A stretch of DNA of 64,000 nucleotides, from IMG/VR virus record IMGVR_UViG_3300045988_099717, positions 82,967 to 146,966 of that record, one strand, 5' to 3'. The DNA comes from a virus. Below, piece after piece: positions 12,299 to 47,502 of this stretch. A program made the position numbers and the translations under genes. Under the pieces are notes generated by a model. That model made no database searches, was not told the origin of the DNA, and saw nothing but the letters and a program-made list of their open reading frames with translations. Numbering within the stretch: the first letter of the stretch is position 1; each line of letters starts with the position of its first letter.

Positions 12299-12931
12299 TA
12301 TATGTGTATATATCAATAACATATAAGAAAAGTTAGATTTTCATTGTTTATGGATTATTTTTATTAAGTTTGCGATATTAGTTTCAGGAAGGGATTATAG
12401 AAAATAGGGAAAAGTAAGAACAGAACGCAACTAATAACGGTAGGAAATGAGAATCAGTACCATCAAACGTAATAACAGCATTCATCTTATGTATAAAAAC
12501 ATTATGAATGATTTAGGTCAATTAAGAACTGTAGTTTCAAAATCCTATATTTATAATCTGATACAAAATCAAACCGGATTAAGTATCAGAACTATATCCC
12601 ATGTCTTGAATCACACAAAAGAACAGGATACAGATTCTTTGTGAAAAGCATACATTTTCATACATTTGTGTGTTCTTTAGTTTTTAGATTTAAGTTTTTC
12701 ATGGTATTAGTTTAGATTAGTGTAGATCAGGGTTCGCAGTGATGCGGGCCCTGGTTTGATTTAAAAAGTATTAAAATATTTGCTATTTAAGATCCTGTTC
12801 CTATCTTTGTTTCAGAAACAATGAACAACGAGATCCCACCTCTGGTTGTTTGATGTTGAAAGATATTTTTGGCTCATTAGGGTTTGTCATAGTGGGATCT
12901 GACATTCTCTTTTGGGCCTATTTTTTTTATC

Positions 12932-13816
12932 ATGGATAAAGTTTCTGTTTTTGAAAGTTCGGATTTTGGAGAGCTTAGAATTATTGTAGATCCAAAAGGA
13001 GATGTTTGGTTTGTGGCGTCAGATGTGGCTAAATCTCTTGGATATATAAATGCTAAAGATGCGGTAAAAAGACATGTAGATGATGATGATTCTATGCTTT
13101 TGCAAGTATCTGATAATCAATGGGGCGTAAAACGATCTATATTGAAAACCAGATATATAGATAGTATAAGAATAATTAATGAATCTGGTTTATATTCTCT
13201 TATATTATCTTCAAAATTAGAGTCTGCTAAGAGATTTAAGAAATGGGTAACATCTGAGGTTCTTCCTTCTATTCGTAAAACAGGAGAATACAAAACAAGT
13301 TCAGGCGGCAAGGGAATTTTGGTTCCTGACTTTTCTAATCCAGCAGATGCGGCAAGGGCATGGGCTGATCAGTATGAAGCTGCTCAGAGAGCTATAGCTG
13401 AAAAGTCGCAGGCAGAGGCAGAGAAGCAACAAGCCTTGAAAACAATAGAAGAGCATAAACCTGATGTGGAATTTGCCGAGTCTTTTAGGAAAGTAGACCA
13501 TAATAATATGTGGTTGATTCGTGATATTGCTAAAAAGTTAGAACAGAATGGTGTTATTATCGCCGAAAAGAATCTTCGATCATTTCTTGAAGAAGCTAAG
13601 TTTATGTTTAGAAACGGTCTTGGAAAATGGGGACTATATAGCAATGTTGTAGCTAAAGGATATGGAGTATATAGGTCTTATTTTGTTGATAAATATTCTG
13701 GTGAAAGAGTTAATCAACAAACTATCTACATGACAGGATCTGGATACGAAGTGACCCTCAATGGCATAAAAGGAAAACTCAAAAATGTATTTTTAAAATA
13801 TGGTAAATTTGCTTGA
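12932..13816 (+). CDS. Bro-N domain antirepressor-like protein with a KilAC/ORF6C-like C-terminal domain
   Basis: The N-terminus FGELRIIVDPKGDVWFVASDVAKSLGYINAKDAVKRHVDDDD matches the Bro-N signature. The C-terminal half resembles phage antirepressor C-terminal domains. Confidence 0.75.
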   Translation: MDKVSVFESSDFGELRIIVDPKGDVWFVASDVAKSLGYINAKDAVKRHVDDDDSMLLQVSDNQWGVKRSILKTRYIDSIRIINESGLYSLILSSKLESAKRFKKWVTSEVLPSIRKTGEYKTSSGGKGILVPDFSNPADAARAWADQYEAAQRAIAEKSQAEAEKQQALKTIEEHKPDVEFAESFRKVDHNNMWLIRDIAKKLEQNGVIIAEKNLRSFLEEAKFMFRNGLGKWGLYSNVVAKGYGVYRSYFVDKYSGERVNQQTIYMTGSGYEVTLNGIKGKLKNVFLKYGKFA

Positions 13817-13826
13817 GTTTGTTTAC

Positions 13827-13870
13827 AGGTAGTGTTTTAAAAGAACAAAAAAACACTACCTATTTTTTTG
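13827..13870 (+). terminator. Strong intrinsic terminator after the Bro-N gene
   Basis: Perfect 12-bp stem aggtagtgtttt/aaaacactacct followed by ATTTTTTTG. Confidence 0.7.
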
Positions 13871-13995
13871 TTTCTGTCTTTTCTGAAAATACTTCTCTTC
13901 TATAGGAAATAAATACACCCATATTCCACCTTACAATCATGATCTTTGTTACGTGCTTCATGCACGTATGTTTAACAATTAAATACTATAAAATT

Positions 13996-15006
13996 ATGGG
14001 TGGTGATAAAATCGTCCTTTTAGATGGAGCCGGGGCTAACGGCGGTGGTGCAGCAGCTACCAACGGTCTTCTTTCAATGATTCCCGGCATGTTTGCTAAT
14101 TTGATAGGTGGTAATAAAATGGATCCTAATCTGGTGGCGGCTTTGATGAACGGTCGTAACAACCAGGACGGTTTCGGCGGGGCTAACGGTTGGTGGCTCT
14201 GGATAATTGTTTTGTTCTGGCTGTGGGGTGGACGCGGCTTCGGTAACGGTTTTGGAAATGGCGGTGATTGTTGTGCCAATGGTTTGCCGGCTCAGTTGAA
14301 TAACGATTACGGTCGTGAACTTTTGATGCAGGCAATTCAAGGTAATCGTAGCGCCATAGATCAGATTGCTTCTGCTTTGAACTGTTCTACTACTCAACTT
14401 CAGAACGCTATCTGCAACGTACAGGGTGCTATTGATAAAGTAGCTGGTCAGGTAGGTATGACTTCTCAGGCTGTTATCAACGCAGTTCAACAACAAGGTT
14501 GTGAAATAGGAAATCAAATCAGCTCTTGCTGCTGCAATCTGAGTTCGTTAATCAATCAAAGCACTTGCCAGACTCAGGGAATGATTACTCAGCAAGGTTT
14601 TGATAACCAGCTTCGAACGTTGGAACAAACCAATATCTTGCAGAACGGTCTCAACCAAGGTCTGGCTAACAATCGAGAGCAAGCTACAAGCCAATTCAAT
14701 ATCTTGTCTGCGAAACTTGACGCCCAAACCGTTATGATCAACGACAAATTCTGTCAGTTGGAAATGAGGGAGATGCAGAACACTATTGCTCAACTTCGTG
14801 AAGAAAAAGCGGCTTTGACAGCTTCGGCATTATCTCAGCAACAAACCCAGAATATCGTTGGTCAATTACGTCCGACGGCCGTTCCGGCCTACCCCTCTTG
14901 TTCTCCTTACCAGGCTTATACTTGGGGACAGGTATTCGGAGGAGGTTGCTGCAATAACGGATGTGGATGTAACAACGGATGTTGCAATAACAACGCTGCT
15001 GTCTGA
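13996..15006 (+). CDS. Gly/Asn/Cys-rich predicted membrane protein
   Basis: ORF with a Gly-rich N-terminus, a Trp-rich hydrophobic segment WWLWIIVLFWLWGG, a Q/N-rich middle and a C-terminus GGGCCNNGCGCNNGCCNN with several CC/CCC motifs. The track start at 13939 is an alternative; ATG 13996 is more plausible. Confidence 0.55.
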   Translation: MGGDKIVLLDGAGANGGGAAATNGLLSMIPGMFANLIGGNKMDPNLVAALMNGRNNQDGFGGANGWWLWIIVLFWLWGGRGFGNGFGNGGDCCANGLPAQLNNDYGRELLMQAIQGNRSAIDQIASALNCSTTQLQNAICNVQGAIDKVAGQVGMTSQAVINAVQQQGCEIGNQISSCCCNLSSLINQSTCQTQGMITQQGFDNQLRTLEQTNILQNGLNQGLANNREQATSQFNILSAKLDAQTVMINDKFCQLEMREMQNTIAQLREEKAALTASALSQQQTQNIVGQLRPTAVPAYPSCSPYQAYTWGQVFGGGCCNNGCGCNNGCCNNNAAV

Positions 15007-15029
15007 TTTTATTAAGAGAGGAGGCTAAT

Positions 15030-15443
15030 ATGGCTTGTGTTTCTAAAATAGGATCGTTGTATGAGATGGTTACGAAGAATGTTATTGTTAGTACGACAAA
15101 TACAGTCTTCGGTATTAACCCACGGGCTTGGATCGCCCTTCCGTGTGAGGGTCTTATCCTTCTTAAGATAAGGCAAGTAGTCCCCACAGCCGGAAGTGCT
15201 CTACCGGTACAGATTGCGGTCCCGGCAAACAGCACAGTTTCAACAGTAGGAGCCGACACCTGTTGCCCGGTTACGGGAGTGAATGTCGTGAACCCTATTA
15301 ACGTAGCTGTCACGGGTGCTGCTATGGTAAATGGCACAGAACGCCTTCTGTACTTCAATAAAGTTCGTGGCGTGTTAAGATTAATGGATTGTTGTGTTCC
15401 GACAACAACAGCCCAGGCATCTGAAGTTAAAGCAGGTAAATGA
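15030..15443 (+). CDS. Hypothetical protein
   Basis: 137-aa ORF followed by a perfect 10-bp-stem terminator. Confidence 0.5.
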   Translation: MACVSKIGSLYEMVTKNVIVSTTNTVFGINPRAWIALPCEGLILLKIRQVVPTAGSALPVQIAVPANSTVSTVGADTCCPVTGVNVVNPINVAVTGAAMVNGTERLLYFNKVRGVLRLMDCCVPTTTAQASEVKAGK

Positions 15444-15450
15444 TTTCAGT

Positions 15451-15480
15451 AGGGTGATGAAGATCATCACCCTATTTTCA
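15451..15480 (+). terminator. Intrinsic terminator
   Basis: Perfect 10-bp stem agggtgatga/tcatcaccct with a 3-nt loop, followed by ATTTTCA. Confidence 0.65.
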
Positions 15481-15493
15481 CCTAACTAATATT

Positions 15494-15988
15494 TTGATCA
15501 TGTTTTCAGATTTGAAGAAAGGGTTTCAGGTACATACCCTTGATACTAATACAGTACCTAAATACGAATTGGGAAAGGTAGTAGCCGTATCCGAACCCAG
15601 GTATCTTCCTCCTCAGCCAGGTCAGTATCAGGCGATGCAGACCCGCGTGGTGGATCTGACGGTAGAGCTCACTGGCGAAACCAAGACCTATACGGTCCCG
15701 GAATCCCAGAATGTGGCTAAGGCTATGGGCATAACATTATCTACCAGCATAGATCCGATTATGAACGAACTGAATGCTATAAAAAACACCAGTCAAGACA
15801 TAATAAACAGCGTAGATGCCCATCGTGCCAAGATAGAGGCTTGTGAATCTATATTAGAAGATATCAATCCGGCATTCAAGCAAACGAGAGAGCAGGATCG
15901 TAAAATAGCTGGTATAGAAAATAAGGTGAATGACCTTACTGATTCATTCGAAGATTTAAAGAAGTTAATTGTAGAACGTTTGAAATAA
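15494..15988 (+). CDS. Hypothetical protein
   Basis: 164-aa ORF. No motif recognised. Confidence 0.5.
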   Translation: MIMFSDLKKGFQVHTLDTNTVPKYELGKVVAVSEPRYLPPQPGQYQAMQTRVVDLTVELTGETKTYTVPESQNVAKAMGITLSTSIDPIMNELNAIKNTSQDIINSVDAHRAKIEACESILEDINPAFKQTREQDRKIAGIENKVNDLTDSFEDLKKLIVERLK

Positions 15989-15995
15989 GTATAAT

Positions 15996-16364
15996 ATGAT
16001 AGTATATGATTTAAATTCAGGACACAGAGAATATCCTGGATATGACGAGATAGAAGACAGACGAGGTGGAGGCAGAGGCAGAAGCCGGCGTTCTGATGGG
16101 ACGTACATGGGGTATGGTGGTGGTATTTACGACCATTACGGTATGCATGAGAAGATGAAAGAAATGGAAGAGCGCGAAAACGAGCTGGAAGAAAGGGAAA
16201 GAAGGCTCGAAGAGCGCGAACGTCGTCATGAAATGGAGGACCGGGAATACCGGAGGATGGGTTACGAATCCTACCCGACCGATTACTATGGAGACGACAG
16301 ATACTACGGTGACGGACCTCAGATGCGTAGAGGTCGCGGACGTGGCAGAGGTCGTTCTTATTGA
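15996..16364 (+). CDS. RG/RGG- and ER-repeat-rich low-complexity protein
   Basis: Contains GGGRGRSRRS, ERERRLEERERRHEMEDREYRR and RGRGRGRGRSY. It ends in TGA and is in frame with the next ORF across an open 31-codon linker. Confidence 0.5.
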   Translation: MIVYDLNSGHREYPGYDEIEDRRGGGRGRSRRSDGTYMGYGGGIYDHYGMHEKMKEMEERENELEERERRLEERERRHEMEDREYRRMGYESYPTDYYGDDRYYGDGPQMRRGRGRGRGRSY

Positions 16365-16457
16365 GGAGCAGACGCAGAGGATCCAGCTTATCAGAAATAT
16401 GTAGATACTTACGGCTACCATTTTTCTAATGCTCTCGCTGATGAGGCGGTAAAGAAG

Positions 16458-16751
16458 ATGGTCAACATCGATGGATCCAAGAGGATCTGGAAGCAGCCGG
16501 AAATAAAAGATATTTTTGAAAAGTGCGGAGCGAAGAAGCCGGATAAAGCGACATGGGGCGATGTCCAATATGTCTTTGCAATGTACTATTCGGATGGTTT
16601 TCCGAAGGTCTTCAAATGTGAGAACGAGTTGGTGAAAGCTACGTTAATGTATTTGGATGATCCGGATGCTCCCGAAGGAGTAGCCTTTATAAGATGGCTT
16701 GCCGTGCAAGATTACCTCGGCGAAAAAATAAACTGGAAGGATCTGACCTGA
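16458..16751 (+). CDS. Hypothetical protein
   Basis: 97-aa ORF ending in TGA, followed by 62 further open in-frame codons. Confidence 0.5.
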   Translation: MVNIDGSKRIWKQPEIKDIFEKCGAKKPDKATWGDVQYVFAMYYSDGFPKVFKCENELVKATLMYLDDPDAPEGVAFIRWLAVQDYLGEKINWKDLT

Positions 16752-16908
16752 GATCCAGATCCAGGTCCTTCCGGTGGTGCGGGAGCCATAGTAAAAAATA
16801 TGATTCCCGCATTCCCGTTTTTCCCGTTTGGAAAAAAAGGAATAAAAATATTATACCGGTCGGCGGGCAATAGAATACCCGTGGCCGGTTTGTTTCACAT
16901 AACTTTTT

Positions 16909-17091
16909 TTGGATATGAATATAGCACACGAATCTAAATCGAATAAAACCCCATTGTATTTAATAGGAGAGTTGATTGGCGTACCGAATACGGTTATGGA
17001 CTCAGCATTGCATGAACTGAAAGATAGAATAGACAAAGACCCTAAATATAAAGATGTTAAAAATTGGCTCGAATCTTTACCCAAGATCTGA
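16909..17091 (+). CDS. Small hypothetical protein
   Basis: 60-aa ORF followed by a terminator. Confidence 0.4.
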   Translation: MDMNIAHESKSNKTPLYLIGELIGVPNTVMDSALHELKDRIDKDPKYKDVKNWLESLPKI

Positions 17092-17113
17092 ACCTATTTT
17101 TTTTAATACCAGG

Positions 17114-17143
17114 CCCGATGCGATTTTAACGTATCGGGTTTTT
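17114..17143 (+). terminator. Intrinsic terminator
   Basis: 6-bp stem cccgat/atcggg with a 13-nt loop, followed by TTTTTATTTT. Confidence 0.6.
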
Positions 17144-17218
17144 ATTTTAATTCATATTGTTTTATTTTAAATCTAATTAATTCATGAATGTCGTACTTTT
17201 GTTGAAAAAGTATTCTAT

Positions 17219-17446
17219 ATGGAAAATAAGGAAGATTACGTTGGTTACGAAGATCAAGAACTGTGTAACCTGTATTACAAAGAGGCTGAAGCCATGAGGC
17301 AAAAGCAGGACTGGTCTCGGCTTAGGGCTGTCCCTGCTCCGGCCAAGGGAACGCCATCGCCAGGCTGGGGTCAGCTTGGACGTGGAAATGATGTCCGTGT
17401 TAAGTACGTTAGCATCAATTCAGGATTAGGAGGGGACAGATTATGA
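17219..17446 (+). CDS. Small hypothetical protein
   Basis: 75-aa ORF whose stop overlaps the next start (ATGA). Confidence 0.4.
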   Translation: MENKEDYVGYEDQELCNLYYKEAEAMRQKQDWSRLRAVPAPAKGTPSPGWGQLGRGNDVRVKYVSINSGLGGDRL

Positions 17447-17658
17447 CTGTAGAAGAATTGGCTAATAAAAGATACAGTGGCGAATTTGTTTTCATGCTTG
17501 GTCATTTGGAAGGTATAACAAGATTCGTTTTTGAATGTTTTGATCCCAGACCTGATCACGAAGGTAAAAATACTTATATGGTTTCCTATTTTGATAAGGG
17601 ACTTCGTAGAAGAGATGTGGTAGATGTGCCATGTTATATGAATGTTTTAGCAAAATAA
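17443..17658 (+). CDS. Small hypothetical protein
   Basis: 71-aa ORF translationally coupled to the upstream ORF. Confidence 0.45.
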   Translation: MTVEELANKRYSGEFVFMLGHLEGITRFVFECFDPRPDHEGKNTYMVSYFDKGLRRRDVVDVPCYMNVLAK

Positions 17659-17678
17659 ATTAAAATATTGTAAATATC

Positions 17679-18314
17679 GTGGTTAGAATCGCATATTTCG
17701 GAACCGATGGCTGCCCTGGTCATTACGCTATTCCGATACGAGGTAAATTCACAGAAGAGGATATTAAGGTAATAGAATCTGTAGATTGTGATGATTTCTA
17801 TAAGGTATTTGACGTCATGCGTTTTAAGATAGCTGAGTTTAAAGGATGGACGATATTGGGGATCCCGGCAAGCTTAGACGATCATAGACCTGGAAGCAAA
17901 ACCGTTATCTTCATAGAGGGTGAAGCTAACGAAGCTGATTTTATAGAAGTCACACAAGAGTATTCTTTTCTTAAAAATAAGGTAAAGAAACTTGCCGAAT
18001 TGTATCATGATGGAGAATGGCTTGCGACTGGTAAATTGAATCAAGATCCGCCTACTAACAAGGAGCGGTTTCAATTTACGTTAGACAAGGATGATATTAT
18101 TAACATGATTAGGGGAGTCGATTTAGATCCTTATTCTGATGTGGCGAATGAAATGGAGAAAATCGGATTGGGATCATCATCTGATTCTTCATATGAGGGT
18201 CCCACATGGTCTTGGTTTGTTAACAAAGTAGAACTTTGGCAGAAGAATAATGTATGGGATAGTTTCTCCGCTGAGTTTTTGTGGGGTTTGTATTGTAGGA
18301 TAAAGAAAGTATAG
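17679..18314 (+). CDS. Hypothetical protein
   Basis: 211-aa ORF. No motif recognised. Confidence 0.5.
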   Translation: MVRIAYFGTDGCPGHYAIPIRGKFTEEDIKVIESVDCDDFYKVFDVMRFKIAEFKGWTILGIPASLDDHRPGSKTVIFIEGEANEADFIEVTQEYSFLKNKVKKLAELYHDGEWLATGKLNQDPPTNKERFQFTLDKDDIINMIRGVDLDPYSDVANEMEKIGLGSSSDSSYEGPTWSWFVNKVELWQKNNVWDSFSAEFLWGLYCRIKKV

Positions 18315-18337
18315 TAACAATTAATTTAAAACAAATC

Positions 18338-19201
18338 ATGGAATTAAAAGATTTTAAAGATGTGGTTAGAGTAATGACAAAAGAAGAGTTCGAATCAACA
18401 ATCGAAGAAGATATTAAATTCGTTGAGGGATTCAAGAATTTCTTAAAACATGATGATGCCACGAGGATAGTAGAGCATATCAAGTCTGTGTTAGAAGCAT
18501 CAGTAGATTACTACTATCCTAATCATCCTGAAGTAGAATTTGAAAAAGATTTTAATATACAATACGATGTCAATAATATCTTGAACAAATACGGCCACAC
18601 CGAAATGGGTATGTATAAAATACAGCTCTATATAGAGAATATTTTGGGTAGTATTCAAAACAAGAAGCCTGTAGACGTGGGAGAAGTCTCTGACGGATAC
18701 CACACTTTCAATGAATTGTATCGGTATCGCATGTTGTATAACGCTGCCTTCTTTAATCTATTAGCCAGAAGCGGACAGGTTGAAGTTTGCAAATCAAGGA
18801 GACACAGCGACGGAGAAAAATGCTTCGGTTCTGATGATTGGTTTATTGTGATGGCGATCCTACCTACCGGTCAGGTATCTAATCACTATGAAAGCAAATA
18901 CTGGGATTTGTTTGATGTTCCTGAAAGAGAAACCGCTTTCGAATACGATGGCCATACACCAAATGAAGCCTCCGACAGACTTGAAAAGTATCTCAAACTG
19001 CCTCGTCATGGCATGACATTCGAACAGGCTTTAGAACGGCTTAAATTAGGTCGTAAGATAAAAAGAATCGATTGGGGTAAAAAGTATATCTGTATGTTTG
19101 ACGTAAATATATTGATGATAGATACAGGTCAAAAAGTAGCATCAAATTGGAATCCAACCGAACATGATATTATGTCTAATGACTGGGAGATTGCGGGATG
19201 A
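18338..19201 (+). CDS. Protein with a C-terminal DUF2829-like (Tad2-like) domain
   Basis: The C-terminal ~60 aa, FEQALERLKLGRKIKRIDWGKKYICM...NWNPTEHDIMSNDWEIAG, match the DUF2829 signature as I remember it: an N-terminal F..AL..LK.G+.+.R..W and a C-terminal W.P...D....DWEI. The N-terminal ~220 aa are unknown. Confidence 0.55.
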   Translation: MELKDFKDVVRVMTKEEFESTIEEDIKFVEGFKNFLKHDDATRIVEHIKSVLEASVDYYYPNHPEVEFEKDFNIQYDVNNILNKYGHTEMGMYKIQLYIENILGSIQNKKPVDVGEVSDGYHTFNELYRYRMLYNAAFFNLLARSGQVEVCKSRRHSDGEKCFGSDDWFIVMAILPTGQVSNHYESKYWDLFDVPERETAFEYDGHTPNEASDRLEKYLKLPRHGMTFEQALERLKLGRKIKRIDWGKKYICMFDVNILMIDTGQKVASNWNPTEHDIMSNDWEIAG

Positions 19202-19473
19202 GTTTGTTTGTATGTTCAAAGTGTGGCTGTATAGATAATACAGCCACATCATGTTACTGGGCTATTATAAGACCTTGTAAGAATCGTATTTACGATAAGT
19301 CGCTAAAGGGATATGAAGGCAAGCCTCTTTGTTCTGAATGCGCCGCTATTGAATATGATAAGGATGATAAACTGGTGGTAGTTCCTGGAACGTGGCATGG
19401 TAAGTTCAAGAAAGAATGGCCTACTGAAGAAGAAAAGAAGCATATTGGTAAAAACGGTATTTTAAATATGTAA
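19198..19473 (+). CDS. Small Cys-rich zinc-ribbon-like protein
   Basis: Contains CSKCGC...C...C...CSEC. Its start overlaps the upstream stop. Confidence 0.45.
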   Translation: MSLFVCSKCGCIDNTATSCYWAIIRPCKNRIYDKSLKGYEGKPLCSECAAIEYDKDDKLVVVPGTWHGKFKKEWPTEEEKKHIGKNGILNM

Positions 19474-19476
19474 ATT

Positions 19477-19782
19477 ATGTGTGATAAGGAAATTGTTGTA
19501 TGTGCAGCTATATGGGTTCAAGATCACAAGAACAAGCCTCACGGTCCAGTAAATATACCATCTGGAACCGTATTTTGTGGATTGAGACACTGTTCCATAA
19601 TATCGCAACTTGCGGCATACGGAATAGCCCATAAAAACCGCAGTGTTCAAGGATTTTTGACAAGCAAGAATCGGTTTTTAACAAGAGAGGAGGCATCTGA
19701 ACTTGTTAAGAGCAATAATCAGGAAATGATAGTAGATAGGAATGCCGTTAGAGAACAATTGTATTCAGAAGATTTATATTAA
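19477..19782 (+). CDS. Hypothetical protein
   Basis: 101-aa ORF. No motif recognised. Confidence 0.45.
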   Translation: MCDKEIVVCAAIWVQDHKNKPHGPVNIPSGTVFCGLRHCSIISQLAAYGIAHKNRSVQGFLTSKNRFLTREEASELVKSNNQEMIVDRNAVREQLYSEDLY

Positions 19783-19799
19783 CTAAAAACAAAATAATA

Positions 19800-21125
19800 T
19801 GGGATTTATGATTATTTAACCAACAAAACCACCATACTTTAGTAGGTGGATGAATTGGTTTGATTAATTTTGAATCAAAATTACAGATAAAAAAATGATT
19901 TCATACAAATACAACATCTATCATTCGAAGAAAACGAAGTATCTTGACAAGATGCTTCGTGAATGTTGTTTTGTATGGAATCATGCGTTAGCTCTACAAC
20001 GTAGGTATCACAAACTGTTTGGGAAATATATATCAATTGGTAAAATGAAGAAACATTTTACCAAAAGAATTAAAAGAAATCTTCTTCATTCCCAAACAAC
20101 ACAAGAAATACTTGAACGTCTTGATGAATCTTATAATCGTTTCTTTAAGAAGTTAGCTAAACGACCTCCTAAGTTTAAATCACCGGAGAAATTCAATTCT
20201 TTTGTATTCAAACAAGGTGGTTTTACCCTGAATGGTAATTGTTTAACAATTAACAAAGGAAAGAAACGATTTAGATTCTCATACAGTAGAGTCTACGAAG
20301 GTAATGTTAAACAAATTAGAATAGTTAGAGAAACGTGTTCCCGTTTTAGTTTGATTATAGTTACAGACTATAATCCTATAAACTCCTATAGAAAGACACA
20401 TGATGGTGCATCTATAGGATTGGATTTTGGCCTGAAAACTTATCTAACTAAAAGCGATGGTAGCAAAATCGATTCTCCATTATTCTTAAAACAATATCAA
20501 AACAAGATTAGAAAACTAAACAAACGGCTTTCTAATGCAAAGAAAGGATCCAACAATAGAAGAAGGAGATTGTTTGAACTCCAACAAACGTATCGTAAAA
20601 TAAACGATCTTCGATCGGATTTTCAATGGGGATTAGCACACCAGTTATGCAAACAGTATGATTATATTTTTATTGAAGATCTAAACATTGAAGGAATGAA
20701 ACGTTTGTGGGGAAAGAAAGTTTCTGATCTCAGTCATTCTTCTTTTATTGATAAGCTAATGTATGTTTCTTCAAAGTATGGAGTAACGATACACAAGATT
20801 GACAAATGGTATCCTTCTTCCAAAACTTGTGAATGTGGCTGCATTAATAAAGGACTGTCGTTACGCGACCGCACGTGGGTGTGCCCAGCGTGCGGAGCGA
20901 TTAACGACCGTGATGTTCTTGCAGCTAAAAATATTCTTCGGAAGGGCATTTCCGAATTGGAGAGCAAGAGTAATTCCAGCGATAGTAATATCGGGGTTTC
21001 TTGCGTTTGTATCCAAGAATCCCATTCGCTTTAGCGATGGGAGTATGTCAAACTGGTAATTGCATAATTTAATTGAACGTAAATCCAAAGGACCCCAGTG
21101 AATCCTTTTTTGACGTATATGATAG
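19800..21125 (+). mobile_element. Candidate IS200/IS605-family element carrying only tnpB (IS1341-like); boundaries approximate
   Basis: An intact TnpB ORF. A hairpin ccacc-N11-ggtgg lies upstream at about 19834-19854. A hairpin aaagga-N10-tccttt followed by TTTT lies downstream at about 21093-21118. The 3' flank could encode a guide (omega) RNA. Confidence 0.5.
19895..21034 (+). CDS. tnpB: TnpB (IS200/IS605 OrfB-type RuvC-like nuclease, RNA-guided family)
   Basis: The N-terminus YKYNIYHSKKTKYLDKMLRECCFVWNHALA is typical of TnpB. A RuvC-I-like D is present (GLDFGLK), an E in FIEDLN, a zinc finger CECGC...CPACG, and a C-terminal DRDVLAAKNI (RuvC-III). Confidence 0.85.
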   Translation: MISYKYNIYHSKKTKYLDKMLRECCFVWNHALALQRRYHKLFGKYISIGKMKKHFTKRIKRNLLHSQTTQEILERLDESYNRFFKKLAKRPPKFKSPEKFNSFVFKQGGFTLNGNCLTINKGKKRFRFSYSRVYEGNVKQIRIVRETCSRFSLIIVTDYNPINSYRKTHDGASIGLDFGLKTYLTKSDGSKIDSPLFLKQYQNKIRKLNKRLSNAKKGSNNRRRRLFELQQTYRKINDLRSDFQWGLAHQLCKQYDYIFIEDLNIEGMKRLWGKKVSDLSHSSFIDKLMYVSSKYGVTIHKIDKWYPSSKTCECGCINKGLSLRDRTWVCPACGAINDRDVLAAKNILRKGISELESKSNSSDSNIGVSCVCIQESHSL

Positions 21126-21185
21126 AGATGAGATGAAATTGATATACGGAATAAAGATCAGTATTCTGAAAGAAATGTTTATCAT

Positions 21186-21503
21186 ATGATTACCAAGCAG
21201 GACATACAAGCAGCAGCATCGTATATTTTCCGAAGCAGTTTTGTCTCGGAGGACCAGGCAAGGAAAGCAATGGTAAGAGTCGGCAATAACGCTACCAAGA
21301 TCCTCGTCAAGACCTTTAGAGGCAAGTTGTTCAAGAAAGCTTTTGAAAGAGCCCGTAGAGGAAAGGATATCAGTTCTTTTGAAAGACAGGAAAAAGAAAG
21401 TGGTTTCAATTTTCTACACAATCCTAATAATGGTCGTATGCAAAGCGGTCATATTATAATAGATGGAATTGGTCTGTTTAAACAAATAATTCATGAAAGG
21501 TAA
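21186..21503 (+). CDS. Hypothetical protein
   Basis: 105-aa ORF. Confidence 0.4.
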   Translation: MITKQDIQAAASYIFRSSFVSEDQARKAMVRVGNNATKILVKTFRGKLFKKAFERARRGKDISSFERQEKESGFNFLHNPNNGRMQSGHIIIDGIGLFKQIIHER

Positions 21504-21643
21504 AAAAGTTGATATTCGTTTAGGCAGAGGTCTGGCGAATCAGATTAAGATAAACAAAACCATCCCAGTGTCTCATAAACCAAAAGAAGAACGTCGAATG
21601 ATGTTTGTTTGTGGTGATGATATTGCTTCTATTATAAAGCGGT

Positions 21644-22036
21644 TTGAAAACGAATCAAAGTAATATAAAGTCGGACATATATCTTGTCCGATTTTTTTTA
21701 TATATTTGTGGCATGGCAAGAGGTTATTATTGGATACCACAAACAGATGAAACGTTAAATGGCAGAAGCTATTACGTGGCTAAGATAGTAGGAGATATCA
21801 CGTTTGATACTAAACGAAAAAGAATCGTATTTCAAGCTGATAGGTATTTCCCTGTAGGATCTGTTTTCCATTTTACGCACAATTGCTTCAATTATATCAT
21901 AACTTGCCTAATTCGTAAGCCGGGGCTTTGGTTTGAAGCCAGGAGAGAGGATTCGGGCTCTATTTGCCCTGAAGATATTGAGCGCTTTGAATCGGGAAGG
22001 TTTATACACCGAGATGGGTACATGCATTACATATAA
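21644..22036 (+). CDS. Hypothetical protein
   Basis: 130-aa ORF followed by the hairpin tgacga-tttt-tcgtca and a T-run. Confidence 0.45.
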   Translation: MKTNQSNIKSDIYLVRFFLYICGMARGYYWIPQTDETLNGRSYYVAKIVGDITFDTKRKRIVFQADRYFPVGSVFHFTHNCFNYIITCLIRKPGLWFEARREDSGSICPEDIERFESGRFIHRDGYMHYI

Positions 22037-22089
22037 GCTGAACTTGACGATTTTTCGTCAGATTATAATTTTTTTTTCATATTATTTTT

Positions 22090-22127
22090 AAGCCATCAGA
22101 CTGAGAAGTTAGATGGCTTTATTTTCT
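22090..22127 (+). terminator. Terminator-like hairpin upstream of the 2140-aa gene
   Basis: 8-bp stem aagccatc/gatggctt with a 14-nt loop, followed by TATTTTCT. Confidence 0.5.
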
Positions 22128-39933: not shown

Positions 39934-41634
39934 TTATTTTTTGTCATCTCCTTTTAGCTTCTTTAAAGTATCTGCAATCGGAAGCTGATCAATGACTCCC
40001 AATGCCGGAGCGACGGTCTTAACAACATTGTTAAGGAAATTACCGGTACTGTTCTGACCGCCGTCAAATACCGTGATATTTCCGAGGTTAATGTGCTCAA
40101 ATGCCTTAACCTGTTCTCCAGCAATTTCTTTCCACTGATTAACCATCTTGTACTGGATGGCTATCTGAGGATTGGATTCTGCTGCTTCCACCATAGCCTT
40201 AAATCCCTCTGCTTCTGCCATCAACGACTTTTTCTTACCTTCGGCTTCTGCTTCCAACTTCATCTTAATAGCCTTTGCTTCGGCTTCTGCTTTTGCCAAA
40301 TTGGCTGCTGCTTCAGCGGCAGCCCGGCGTTTAATCTTTTCTGCTTCAGCATCAGCTTGCAAAATAGCTTCTTGCTTCTGGATTTCAGCCGGCACAATCT
40401 TTTCAGCTCGAAGCGCAGCTTGAACTTTCTCAGCCTTAGCCTCTTCCACTTCTTTATCAGCAAGCTCTTTTGCCGTTTTCACAGCCGCTTCCGATTTAAC
40501 CCTCTCTTCTCCAGCCTTCTTTTCTGATTGAGCTTTGATAACCTGTAATTCTGATTCTGATATAGCAACCTCTTTCTGGGCATTGTTATAACCCACAGAT
40601 GCGTTTTTCTCAGCTTCAGCTTTCTTGATCTGAGCTTCGGAATCTTGGATTGCTATAGCTGCTTGTTTATCAGCCTCAGCCTTATTCTTTCCGACTTCTT
40701 CCATTCTTTCAGCCTCAGCTTTGTTTACCTCAAGTTCTGCCTTAGATCTTGCGATCGCTGATTCCTTATCAGCCAAAGTCTTTGCAATAACCGCAGCCCT
40801 ATCTCTATCGGCTTGAGCTACACCGATCTGTTTTTCTTTATCGGTTAAAGCCAAAGCTACTTCTTTTTCTTTCTTTGTTTCAGCTACTACCGTTTCCTTT
40901 TCTTTTTCAGTATAGGCAATTTGAATCTCTTGCTCTTTTTGGGTATTAGCTACAGCCGTTTCTTTTTCCTTTTGCTGTACAGCAATCTTAATAGCACCCA
41001 GCTTTTCCTGTTCTTCGATATTAGCCTGTGCTTCGTTCAGGGCCTTACTTTCAGCTTCTTTGCCAAGATTCATGATATAGCCGGCTTCGTCTCTGATGTC
41101 ACTGATGTTGATATTTAGGAGGTAAAGGCCTAACTTATTAAGTTCGTTATCAATGTTTTTTCTTGCCTTATCCAAAAACTCATCCCTGTCAGAATTAAGT
41201 TTTTCAATCGTCATTTCAGCAATGATCAAACGCATTTGGCCATAAACGATATCCGTAATAAGATTTTCAGTAGATTCAGTATCCATCCCCAAAAGCCTTT
41301 CTGCTGCATTCTGCATAATTTCAGGATTTGTGCTGATTGCTACTGTAATAGTAGTAGGTACATCCACTCTGATATTTTGAGACGACAAAGCACCGGTGAG
41401 CCTACAATCTATTTGCATAGGCTCCATAGACAAAATATCATAGCTTTGAATAATAGGCAAGACGAATGCCGCTCCACCATGATATAATTTCGCCGATTTC
41501 TTTTCCCCACCTGTCTTACCATAAACGACCAAGACTTGATTAGGTTTACATCTACGATACCTTGATAAGACTCCGATGATTGTCAAAATAATCACTACAG
41601 CTAAAATAGCTGACACGTACATGATTGTTGTCAT
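39934..41634 (-). CDS. SPFH/band-7 (flotillin/YqiK-like) membrane protein
   Basis: An N-terminal transmembrane helix, an SPFH core (YRRCKPNQVLVVYGK...IRVDVPTTITVAIS...) and a long A/E/K-rich coiled-coil tail made of EAEK-type repeats. Confidence 0.8.
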   Translation of the reverse strand: MTTIMYVSAILAVVIILTIIGVLSRYRRCKPNQVLVVYGKTGGEKKSAKLYHGGAAFVLPIIQSYDILSMEPMQIDCRLTGALSSQNIRVDVPTTITVAISTNPEIMQNAAERLLGMDTESTENLITDIVYGQMRLIIAEMTIEKLNSDRDEFLDKARKNIDNELNKLGLYLLNINISDIRDEAGYIMNLGKEAESKALNEAQANIEEQEKLGAIKIAVQQKEKETAVANTQKEQEIQIAYTEKEKETVVAETKKEKEVALALTDKEKQIGVAQADRDRAAVIAKTLADKESAIARSKAELEVNKAEAERMEEVGKNKAEADKQAAIAIQDSEAQIKKAEAEKNASVGYNNAQKEVAISESELQVIKAQSEKKAGEERVKSEAAVKTAKELADKEVEEAKAEKVQAALRAEKIVPAEIQKQEAILQADAEAEKIKRRAAAEAAANLAKAEAEAKAIKMKLEAEAEGKKKSLMAEAEGFKAMVEAAESNPQIAIQYKMVNQWKEIAGEQVKAFEHINLGNITVFDGGQNSTGNFLNNVVKTVAPALGVIDQLPIADTLKKLKGDDKK

Positions 41635-46174: not shown

Positions 46175-46511
46175 TTACACACCCTGGATTATCTTCACAT
46201 GCCTCTTTGTATTCGATAAGAAACTTAAGAAATGAATCATAAGACCCCCATCCGTTTTCTGGTTCGTATCTCAAAAGACTCTTTCTCTTGGAGATCATAA
46301 TATATATACCTTTTGTGAGTATCTTCACCATCTCCTTAGTATCTATTTCCCTGCCCAATTCTTCCGGTCTCCAAACATAATCGTATAGTGTTTCTTTGTT
46401 TTCTGATACGAATATTTTTTGTGCCATCTTGTTCATGTTGTGGGTGATGTTTGCAACCCATTTACGATCCTCTTCTTTCTTCTTGCTCTTAATATAAACG
46501 TCCAGGCTCAT
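46158..46511 (-). CDS. Hypothetical protein
   Basis: 117-aa ORF. Confidence 0.45.
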   Translation of the reverse strand: MSLDVYIKSKKKEEDRKWVANITHNMNKMAQKIFVSENKETLYDYVWRPEELGREIDTKEMVKILTKGIYIMISKRKSLLRYEPENGWGSYDSFLKFLIEYKEACEDNPGCVIEASR

Positions 46512-47502
46512 AATATTTCTCTTTTACTTTGTTACTAATTATCAAATCTGCCACATCATCTCCATCTCCTACATTTTCAACATTTTGAAGATAGTCCGAT
46601 ACTTTTATCCTTGATCTCATCATCATCCCATCTATCTTTTTACTCCATGTCTCAAATGCTTGTCCTTTGTCCGGAAAAGCTACGGTCTTTCTATCTTTTA
46701 AAACATCTATCACTTCCGGCCTTAGATTCTGCAACCCACCGGTAGCTACAAATAACTCATCTGGTTTATTCACAGCGCATATAATAGCCGTCTTTTCTGA
46801 TTCCACCAAATTAACCACCTTATCCGGATACTGGCTTAGAAGATGTTCTCCGAACAGGCATTGTCTAAACAAGAAGTCTCTTGCATGCAACGAGTGATAA
46901 AACATGACATGAGGCCGCTCATTGTCACCGTCTTTTTCTTTCACTCTTTTTACATCAATCTCATTCCCCTGGCTGTCGGTCTTTATATAAAAGTCCATGA
47001 TCTTGCCGGTTCTACATACAAAATCTTTGTCTATCTGCCAGAATATACAACACCCTTTCCATCCCCATAAGTCCATTGTTCCGACATGATACCTCCTGAA
47101 TACATCAGATACCCTTTCTTTTCCCCATAGAGACGATAAAAATCTAAATACGGTGTTTCTGTCGTCTGGAACCACAGTCCTCTCAAACTCGCTAAAAGGT
47201 ATGTAATTTACAACGTCAGGATTTACAGGAGGACGATAAGCTCTTATACACTTGTTTCCCGAAATCCAAAGATCTTTGTCACCTACATCCTTACCAGTAG
47301 GTCGTTTATCATAACCGCAAGTCCGTTCATGATCGCATCTTCCAAACTCGTTTCCAACAACCTGACCTGTTGCCACATCAATATAAGGGGTGAGGCACCG
47401 GCTTTTCCCGCAAGCGGGGCAGGTTAGCTTCAGTCGGCTCCTGCCAGGTCTGCGGTCAAGTTGAAACCGGGGTACGTTTTCGTATCTTCTGAAATCAAGC
47501 AT
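46489..47502 (-). CDS. DNA primase (zinc finger plus Toprim)
   Basis: Zinc finger CPACGKSRC...CDHERTCG. Toprim motifs VNLVESEKTAIICA, VATGG, AFPDKGQ and GDGDDVADL. Confidence 0.7.
   Translation of the reverse strand: MLDFRRYENVPRFQLDRRPGRSRLKLTCPACGKSRCLTPYIDVATGQVVGNEFGRCDHERTCGYDKRPTGKDVGDKDLWISGNKCIRAYRPPVNPDVVNYIPFSEFERTVVPDDRNTVFRFLSSLWGKERVSDVFRRYHVGTMDLWGWKGCCIFWQIDKDFVCRTGKIMDFYIKTDSQGNEIDVKRVKEKDGDNERPHVMFYHSLHARDFLFRQCLFGEHLLSQYPDKVVNLVESEKTAIICAVNKPDELFVATGGLQNLRPEVIDVLKDRKTVAFPDKGQAFETWSKKIDGMMMRSRIKVSDYLQNVENVGDGDDVADLIISNKVKEKYYEPGRLY

Follow-up and report, generated by a model that had tools for sequence, protein, structure and literature searches.

A WDGH domain joined to a minimal Tad2-like module in a modular gut-phage accessory protein, and its possible role in counter-defence

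A 287-residue protein encoded in the 64,000-nucleotide stretch of phage DNA analysed here (the window) combines a WDGH domain (PF25311) with a Tad2-like module of minimal size, and appears to be a modular, dispensable accessory protein, most likely a 'polyvalent' counter-defence factor built of two autonomous units; taken whole, this explanation has about an even chance of being correct. The first unit, WDGH (aa 115–217), would carry a putative catalytic or small-molecule site. The second (aa 226–287) has most likely kept the ability to bind an immune signal derived from nucleotides, for example an ADP-ribose-type TIR product, in a central Trp/Trp/Asp pocket. The units would work independently and not as one machine, because members of one and the same phage lineage have them joined, have either one by itself, or lack both, and the Tad2 unit is exchanged as a cassette. 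That the protein is involved in countering nucleotide-signalling immunity is likewise a claim on which the evidence is close to evenly balanced.

The gene is a single long open reading frame with an ATG start, in which an N-terminal helical segment, the WDGH domain, a short linker and the minimal Tad2-like module follow one another (L numbers denote loci fetched for comparison and P numbers protein clusters).

18338..19201, plus strand: WDGH-Tad2 open reading frame, 287 aa (open reading frame list, Pfam, structure model)
18338..18667, plus strand: lineage-specific N-terminal alpha-helical segment, aa 1–110
18680..18988, plus strand: WDGH domain (PF25311), aa 115–217 (Pfam)
18989..19012, plus strand: linker YLKLPRHG, aa 218–225 (alignment of the window, L009, L006 and L010)
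19013..19198, plus strand: minimal Tad2-like module, aa 226–287, with its own Met226 at the start (Pfam PF11195)

The preliminary description had placed a DUF2829/Tad2 domain at the C-terminus, and both lines of evidence bear it out: the HMMER search against Pfam gave a significant match to PF11195 ('Tad2-like', formerly DUF2829) over aa 226–285 (E=7.1e-11, 42.9 bits against a cut-off of 25, profile positions 1–72 of 73), and structure prediction with comparison to Tad2 recovered the Tad2 fold in the same region. The unknown N-terminal domain of about 220 aa that had been described in front of it is in fact a variable helical segment (aa 1–110) plus a named Pfam domain, WDGH, which is matched at E=5.8e-36 (aa 115–217, 123.1 bits against a cut-off of 27, profile positions 1–96 of 97). 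Among PHROGs both parts match families of unknown function only, PADLOC and NCBIfam searches of the protein returned no matches, and Pfam gave no profile match to Sequestin (PF21825). The segment aa 1–110 has no family match in Pfam, NCBIfam or PADLOC; it is modelled as helices at 15–35, 41–59, 74–85 and 89–107 (pLDDT 40–80), includes an indel of ∼36 aa (about aa 69–104) that is missing from some orthologues, and is replaced in other homologs by unrelated N-terminal modules.

In the structure model the Tad2 module consists of alpha1, antiparallel beta1–beta4, a short helix and beta5. When pocket residues are mapped by alignment to 8sme and by published contact lists, W246, W271 and D277 are retained (SPO1 W25, W73 and D79; HgmTad2 W21, W87 and D93), and their equivalents are kept in all Tad2 alleles compared. 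Residues of alpha1 that are used for tetramer interlock are also kept (F228, A231, L232, L235, G238). Other parts of the pocket are altered. Gly247 replaces the Asn after the first Trp (SPO1 N26, HgmTad2 N22), a residue that contacts the ligand phosphates and adenine, and a double mutant that removes it together with the Trp (HgmTad2 W21A/N22A) has markedly reduced gcADPR binding; short-type alleles have G, K, D, R or N here. The equivalents of T78, D67 and H71 have likewise changed, to H276, Q265 and S269. Beta2 runs into the next strand through a direct hairpin (...YICMFDVN-ILMIDT...), without the alpha2/insertion, and the module has ∼25–40 residues fewer at this point than SPO1 and HgmTad2. 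As the alpha2/beta2–beta3 region forms the V-shaped dimer interface in SPO1 Tad2 and the cyclic-dinucleotide site in HgmTad2, its absence means that the pocket-building tetramer may not form. The module would be unable to use the HgmTad2 cyclic-dinucleotide site, given the missing insertion, and with the Asn lost as well neither binding of that type nor the canonical tetramer can be assumed. It is possible that the minimal module has a different ligand.

At ∼62–64 aa the module is the shortest seen among homologs, which range from a canonical HgmTad2-like form of 99 aa (GWNGKG...SWVPSxSD...EDWEIV) through intermediates of 70–89 aa, and its PF11195 score of 42.9 bits compares with 69–71 bits for long-type modules. 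This graded shortening, the lower score and the loss of the key Asn and of alpha2/insertion would all be expected if the module were a degenerate, non-binding remnant, either a folding or oligomerisation tag or a domain on its way out, with WDGH alone functional; the N-domain of RyR Tad, which serves mainly in dimerisation, offers a precedent for such a partner domain. We consider this unlikely, chiefly in light of how the locus has evolved.

Selection differs among the parts of the gene: by the Nei–Gojobori method, applied per domain, dN/dS is 0.02–0.07 for WDGH, 0.16–0.5 for the N-terminus and 0.22–0.58 for Tad2, with the Tad2 allele ratios approximate because dS is near saturation for those pairs. 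The value for Tad2 thus stays below 1 at a dS of about 1.2, contrary to what a remnant predicts, and the Trp/Trp/Asp core and alpha1 residues persist in all alleles. Between the window and L009, WDGH is nearly identical (dS 0.016) and Tad2 has dS 1.18 and pN 0.41; the L009 Tad2 equals that of L006 (dS 0.057), and the window's equals those of L001 and L011 (dS 0). At least three alleles have been exchanged in this way (DWGKKY, 62 aa; GWKNEH, 75 aa; DWGGKY, 70 aa), and alignment of the window, L009, L006 and L010 places the recombination switch point between WDGH and Tad2 in the linker, ...DRLE(K/Q)YL(KLPRH/NQKKS)G. A tag with no active role would not be expected to be kept and exchanged as several diverged alleles.

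In the window's lineage the two domains are found in all four combinations: fused, as in the window, WDGH only, Tad2 only, and neither. A genuine GAA>TAA nonsense mutation at E229 leaves WDGH alone in L017, and further clusters with WDGH intact carry a frameshifted or truncated Tad2; some of the variants that keep WDGH are abundant (P0061 and P0064, 77 members each). These recurrent losses by nonsense mutation, frameshift or deletion count against the main explanation, since they also fit decay, and they favour a degenerate module. Against decay, an intact 66-aa Tad2 open reading frame starting at Met226 survives on 13 contigs after WDGH has been destroyed, by an out-of-frame deletion in L019 and by a 1-nt frameshift behind DGHTP in L020, and this standalone form scores 55.9 bits on PF11195. 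Both domains are deleted in L018, a contig of 146 kb. With fused, single and absent states all present, each unit behaves as a module in its own right, of use under some conditions only.

Read in the +1 frame, the WDGH region reaches a stop at its 3′ end, a TGA overlapping the Met226 ATG (window 19004–19018, GGCATGACA). An upstream frameshift or out-of-frame deletion, as in L019 and L020, therefore yields an ATGA-coupled 66-aa Tad2 frame. The coupling could be chance, or it could be a built-in release of the module.

WDGH is more conserved than any other part of the protein. The model has alpha1, three beta strands, alpha2 and alpha3 (alpha-beta3-alpha2), and the residues that are invariant across the deepest divergence of the family are all kept here: D119, G120, H122, T123, R131, S153, H156, D158, G159, H183, E196, D204, G205 and H206. 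They include three DG/H motifs (D119-G120-x-H122, H156-x-D158-G159 and D204-G205-H206), and the eponymous (W)DGH motif reads YDGH (Y203 to H206) in the window protein. The invariant Asp/His/Arg/Ser/Glu cluster looks like a catalytic or small-molecule site. If WDGH were an enzyme, possibly metal-dependent, the two domains could form a coupled device in which Tad2 captures a nucleotide signal and WDGH cleaves or modifies the same molecule. The DG/H motifs together with R131, S153, H183 and E196, the extreme purifying selection on WDGH, its repeated fusion to signal-binding domains, and the existence of phage enzymes that cleave signals (for example Acb1 and Acb5) would all suit such coupling. 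It is nonetheless improbable in our assessment: either domain can be found, and is maintained, on its own within the lineage; standalone proteins of 100–125 aa make up most of the WDGH proteins; different Tad2 alleles replace one another behind a WDGH that stays the same, which speaks against specificities adapted to each other; and the WDGH model has no fold similarity to any known hydrolase. It has no solved structural relative either, and no literature on WDGH was found.

Clustered at 50% identity, the family comprises at least 3,764 clusters. It occurs in 197–201 phages of INPHARED, which infect mainly Listeria, Bacillus and Salmonella, and members from phages of Bacteroidota, Firmicutes and Proteobacteria share 60–78% identity. 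Only ∼3% of the sampled representatives carry a sponge domain, so most WDGH biology is not related to Tad2. In a distant Firmicutes-type branch most members are standalone proteins of 100–125 aa, which is the size range typical of sponges. In Salmonella phage BTP1 the gene is a moron between the coat and tail-hub genes (L002, 6401–6961), and it has the same placement in other P22-like phages (phage L Orf186, epsilon34); in Streptococcus phage IPP66 (L016, 18063–18458) and pneumococcal phages it lies between the portal and minor head protein genes. Nucleotide-metabolism genes adjoin it in L012.

From this distribution it might be supposed that the protein has no immune role, WDGH serving some universal process of host or phage (metabolism of nucleic acids or nucleotides, regulation, or a virion-associated one) and DUF2829 being a generic fold that binds small molecules or proteins. 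Identity at this level across the phages of three phyla suggests a universal target and not a host-specific defence protein, WDGH genes often stand inside structural gene modules (BTP1, IPP66), the L012 neighbours point to nucleotide metabolism, and there is no match in anti-defence libraries. Yet immune signals such as NAD-derived ADPR isomers and cyclic nucleotides occur universally too, so that a counter-defence protein could be conserved to this degree; it is hard to see why else WDGH would be fused to two unrelated verified sponges, and the WDGH-Tad2 gene is dispensable and highly variable in its presence. The absence of an immune role is accordingly judged quite unlikely.

The architecture itself is common. 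A search of 5.8 billion proteins found 1,558 homologs of the WDGH-Tad2 protein, and precomputed annotation gives PF25311 plus PF11195 for most of the best 120 of them; the 99%-identical cluster P0001 has 812 member sequences. The window is ∼96% identical to human gut phage csAssE-Sib (OR575929.1, 151 kb), whose orthologue bears the deposited name 'protein of unknown function (DUF2829)'. The architecture is thus not a rare one, and the view of Tad2 proteins as small single-domain sponges is out of date now that functional Acb4-Tad2, Tad2-Sequestin and Acb4-Sequestin fusions have been published; the idea that the fusion would be biologically informative has held. Three WDGH-sponge architectures are genuine, each confirmed by hmmscan: WDGH with a long Tad2 (P0110); WDGH with Sequestin and Tad2 (P0117, 70 members), in a different phage of ∼40 kb (L003–L005); and WDGH with Sequestin (P0398, 42 members on 22 contigs), in the distant Firmicutes-type branch and an SPbeta-like context.

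A 2025 preprint reports frequent fusions of Tad2 with other sponges and inhibition of both Thoeris and CBASS by Acb4-Tad2, and in the same work the criterion 'fused to Tad2/Acb4' led to Sequestin (PF21825), a sponge for 3′cADPR; a 2026 preprint characterises an Acb4-Sequestin fusion in an anti-signalling hot spot. By the logic that uncovered Sequestin, repeated independent fusion to Tad2 and Sequestin would mark WDGH as counter-defence. We therefore propose, tentatively and with less confidence than for the protein as a whole, that WDGH is a very large phage counter-defence family acting on nucleotide immune signalling, whether it is a new sponge or, as the invariant Asp/His/Arg/Ser/Glu cluster would allow, a new enzyme that destroys the signal and has a fold without a counterpart in the PDB. 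The link is one of guilt by fusion only, and an adjacency test in five unrelated phages came out negative, with no standalone Tad2 or Sequestin within 5 kb of their WDGH genes. Three known proteins were considered as identities for WDGH and ruled out: Lockin, which is described as a beta-rich hexamer and is absent from INPHARED; Acb5, which occurs mainly in Streptomyces and Mycobacterium phages and has key residues W38, R10 and H61; and the RyR Tad N-domain, an 86-aa five-stranded swapped sheet where WDGH is alpha-beta3-alpha2.

At the loci fetched from the window's lineage, the WDGH-Tad2 gene always lies in a variable island between genes of 751 aa and 2,140 aa, the latter annotated as 'structural protein' in csAssE-Sib. 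The accessory-island context proposed earlier is upheld, with the Bro-N antirepressor and TnpB both recognised by Pfam.

12932..13816, plus strand: Bro-N plus KilAC/ANT antirepressor, on the 5′ side of the island (Pfam, E=4.4e-27 and 9.5e-13)
17679..18314, plus strand: 211-aa gene, no family match, upstream of WDGH-Tad2
19198..19473, plus strand: 91-aa gene with two CxxC pairs (C6/C9, C45/C48), phrog_11861
19477..19782, plus strand: 101-aa gene, phrog_839 (PHROG); orthologues carry PF26092 T4_Y16D in precomputed annotation
19895..21034, plus strand: TnpB, IS605 OrfB plus Cas12f-like TNB domain (Pfam and PHROG matches)

The island (window 12900–22100; L006–L011, L017–L020) is a deletion hot spot with junctions inside open reading frames, many of them in-frame, and the resulting chimeras stand as separate protein clusters that mimic domain fusions: Bro-N(1–190)+WDGH-Tad2, o211(1–157)+WDGH-Tad2 (the 211-aa gene being a frequent 5′ partner) and WDGH-Tad2(1–110)+o101(18–101). 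Apparent fusions of Bro-N with WDGH and Tad2, of the 211-aa gene with WDGH, and of a WDGH fragment with PF26092 were rejected as in-frame deletion chimeras of island neighbours.

The stop of WDGH-Tad2 overlaps the start of the 91-aa gene (ATGA at 19198–19201), which is next after WDGH-Tad2 in L006–L009, L011, L019 and L020; no 91-aa gene is called at this place in L010. Its product is likely a zinc ribbon and may be a functional partner of WDGH-Tad2. The 101-aa gene is downstream in every locus of the lineage. The Bro-N/ANT gene, an 'antirepressor protein' in csAssE-Sib, is present or absent among related loci. The position of TnpB in the island varies among related genomes (L008, 8041–9264; L009, 3680–4870; L010, 5351–6208; L019, 4894–6033), which suggests recent mobility inside the phage genome; the L010 copy is truncated, and a further copy lies at L003 10994–12166. 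No TnpA was called near TnpB in the genes examined, and Rfam gave no omega-RNA family.

The island also encodes a 355-aa Gly/Asn/Gln/Cys-rich protein (13939–15006, plus strand) that ends in CCNNGCGCNNGCCNNN and is called 'spike protein/glycoprotein' in csAssE-Sib, and a 122-aa Arg/Glu/Gly/Tyr-rich protein (15996–16364, plus strand) with RGG/RGR repeats (…RRGRGRGRGRSY). Elsewhere in the window, a 566-aa protein with SPFH/Band 7 and C-terminal flotillin domains (39934–41634, minus strand; Pfam E=2.5e-25 and 8e-10) belongs to a family of membrane-microdomain scaffolds that phages do not usually encode. Near 30 kb there is a sharp switch in both GC skew and coding strand. A DUF6371 plus zinc beta-ribbon protein is encoded at 46489–47502 (minus strand); the DUF6371 family also occurs upstream of the WDGH+Sequestin+Tad2 gene in the unrelated ∼40-kb phage (L003–L005, 1–416), which points to a replication-module gene common to these gut phages. 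Across the 64 kb of the window there is no tRNA gene, and no Rfam family reaches its gathering threshold.

Phages are known to use Tad2 sponges against Thoeris, CBASS and Pycsar signalling, and the Tad2 call alone would be incremental. What is new is a natural minimal Tad2 of ∼62 aa, without the insertion and the key Asn, which tests what pocket formation needs and may have a different ligand; a sponge module swapped, lost and freed as a cassette within one gut-phage lineage, a clean record of an arms race; and, in WDGH, a strong candidate for an anti-defence family, joined independently to two families of verified sponges. WDGH offers the more interesting lead: this phage family is very large and structurally orphan, and its presence in genetically tractable phages makes the counter-defence hypothesis directly testable. 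If it is true, Listeria phages A511 and P100, the P22-like phages BTP1, epsilon34 and L, Bacillus phage Tsamsa and Lactococcus 949-like phages would all carry a counter-defence WDGH.

Compared with known systems, the window module shares with Tad2 proteins (SPO1 gp34.65, HgmTad2/AcrIIA7, ModTad2) the fold, the hallmark blocks, the ligand-stacking Trp pair, the ribose-binding Asp and a phage accessory-island context. Those proteins are 86–104 aa long, however, whereas the window module has ∼62 aa, is fused behind a 225-aa N-terminal region, lacks the alpha2/insertion (V-dimer interface, HgmTad2 cyclic-dinucleotide site) and has Gly for the phosphate-contacting Asn. The protein is also a clear member of the WDGH family (Listeria phage A511 gp21, P100 gp128, BTP1_006, phage L Orf186, Tsamsa gp135), with all deeply invariant residues in common, including the DGH motif; members are mostly standalone at 100–200 aa, and the window protein adds a lineage-specific helical N-terminus and a C-terminal Tad2. 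With the published polyvalent sponge fusions, Acb4-Tad2 (Pasteurella phage Pm86), Tad2-Sequestin and Acb4-Sequestin (Pseudomonas phage Ab09 gp59), it shares a Tad2 or Sequestin module joined to another autonomous small domain in one polypeptide, modules that also exist as single open reading frames, and a setting in variable anti-defence hot spots. In those fusions both partners are verified sponges, whereas the partner here is much more conserved than any sponge family and has an enzyme-like pattern of residues. RyR Tad (Pectobacterium phage CB1 gp68), an anti-Thoeris protein, likewise has two domains with the sponge at the C-terminus and an N-domain that is often a separate open reading frame; its N-domain is an 86-aa domain-swapped five-stranded sheet and its sponge is RyR-repeat-like, in contrast to the WDGH and Tad2 found here.
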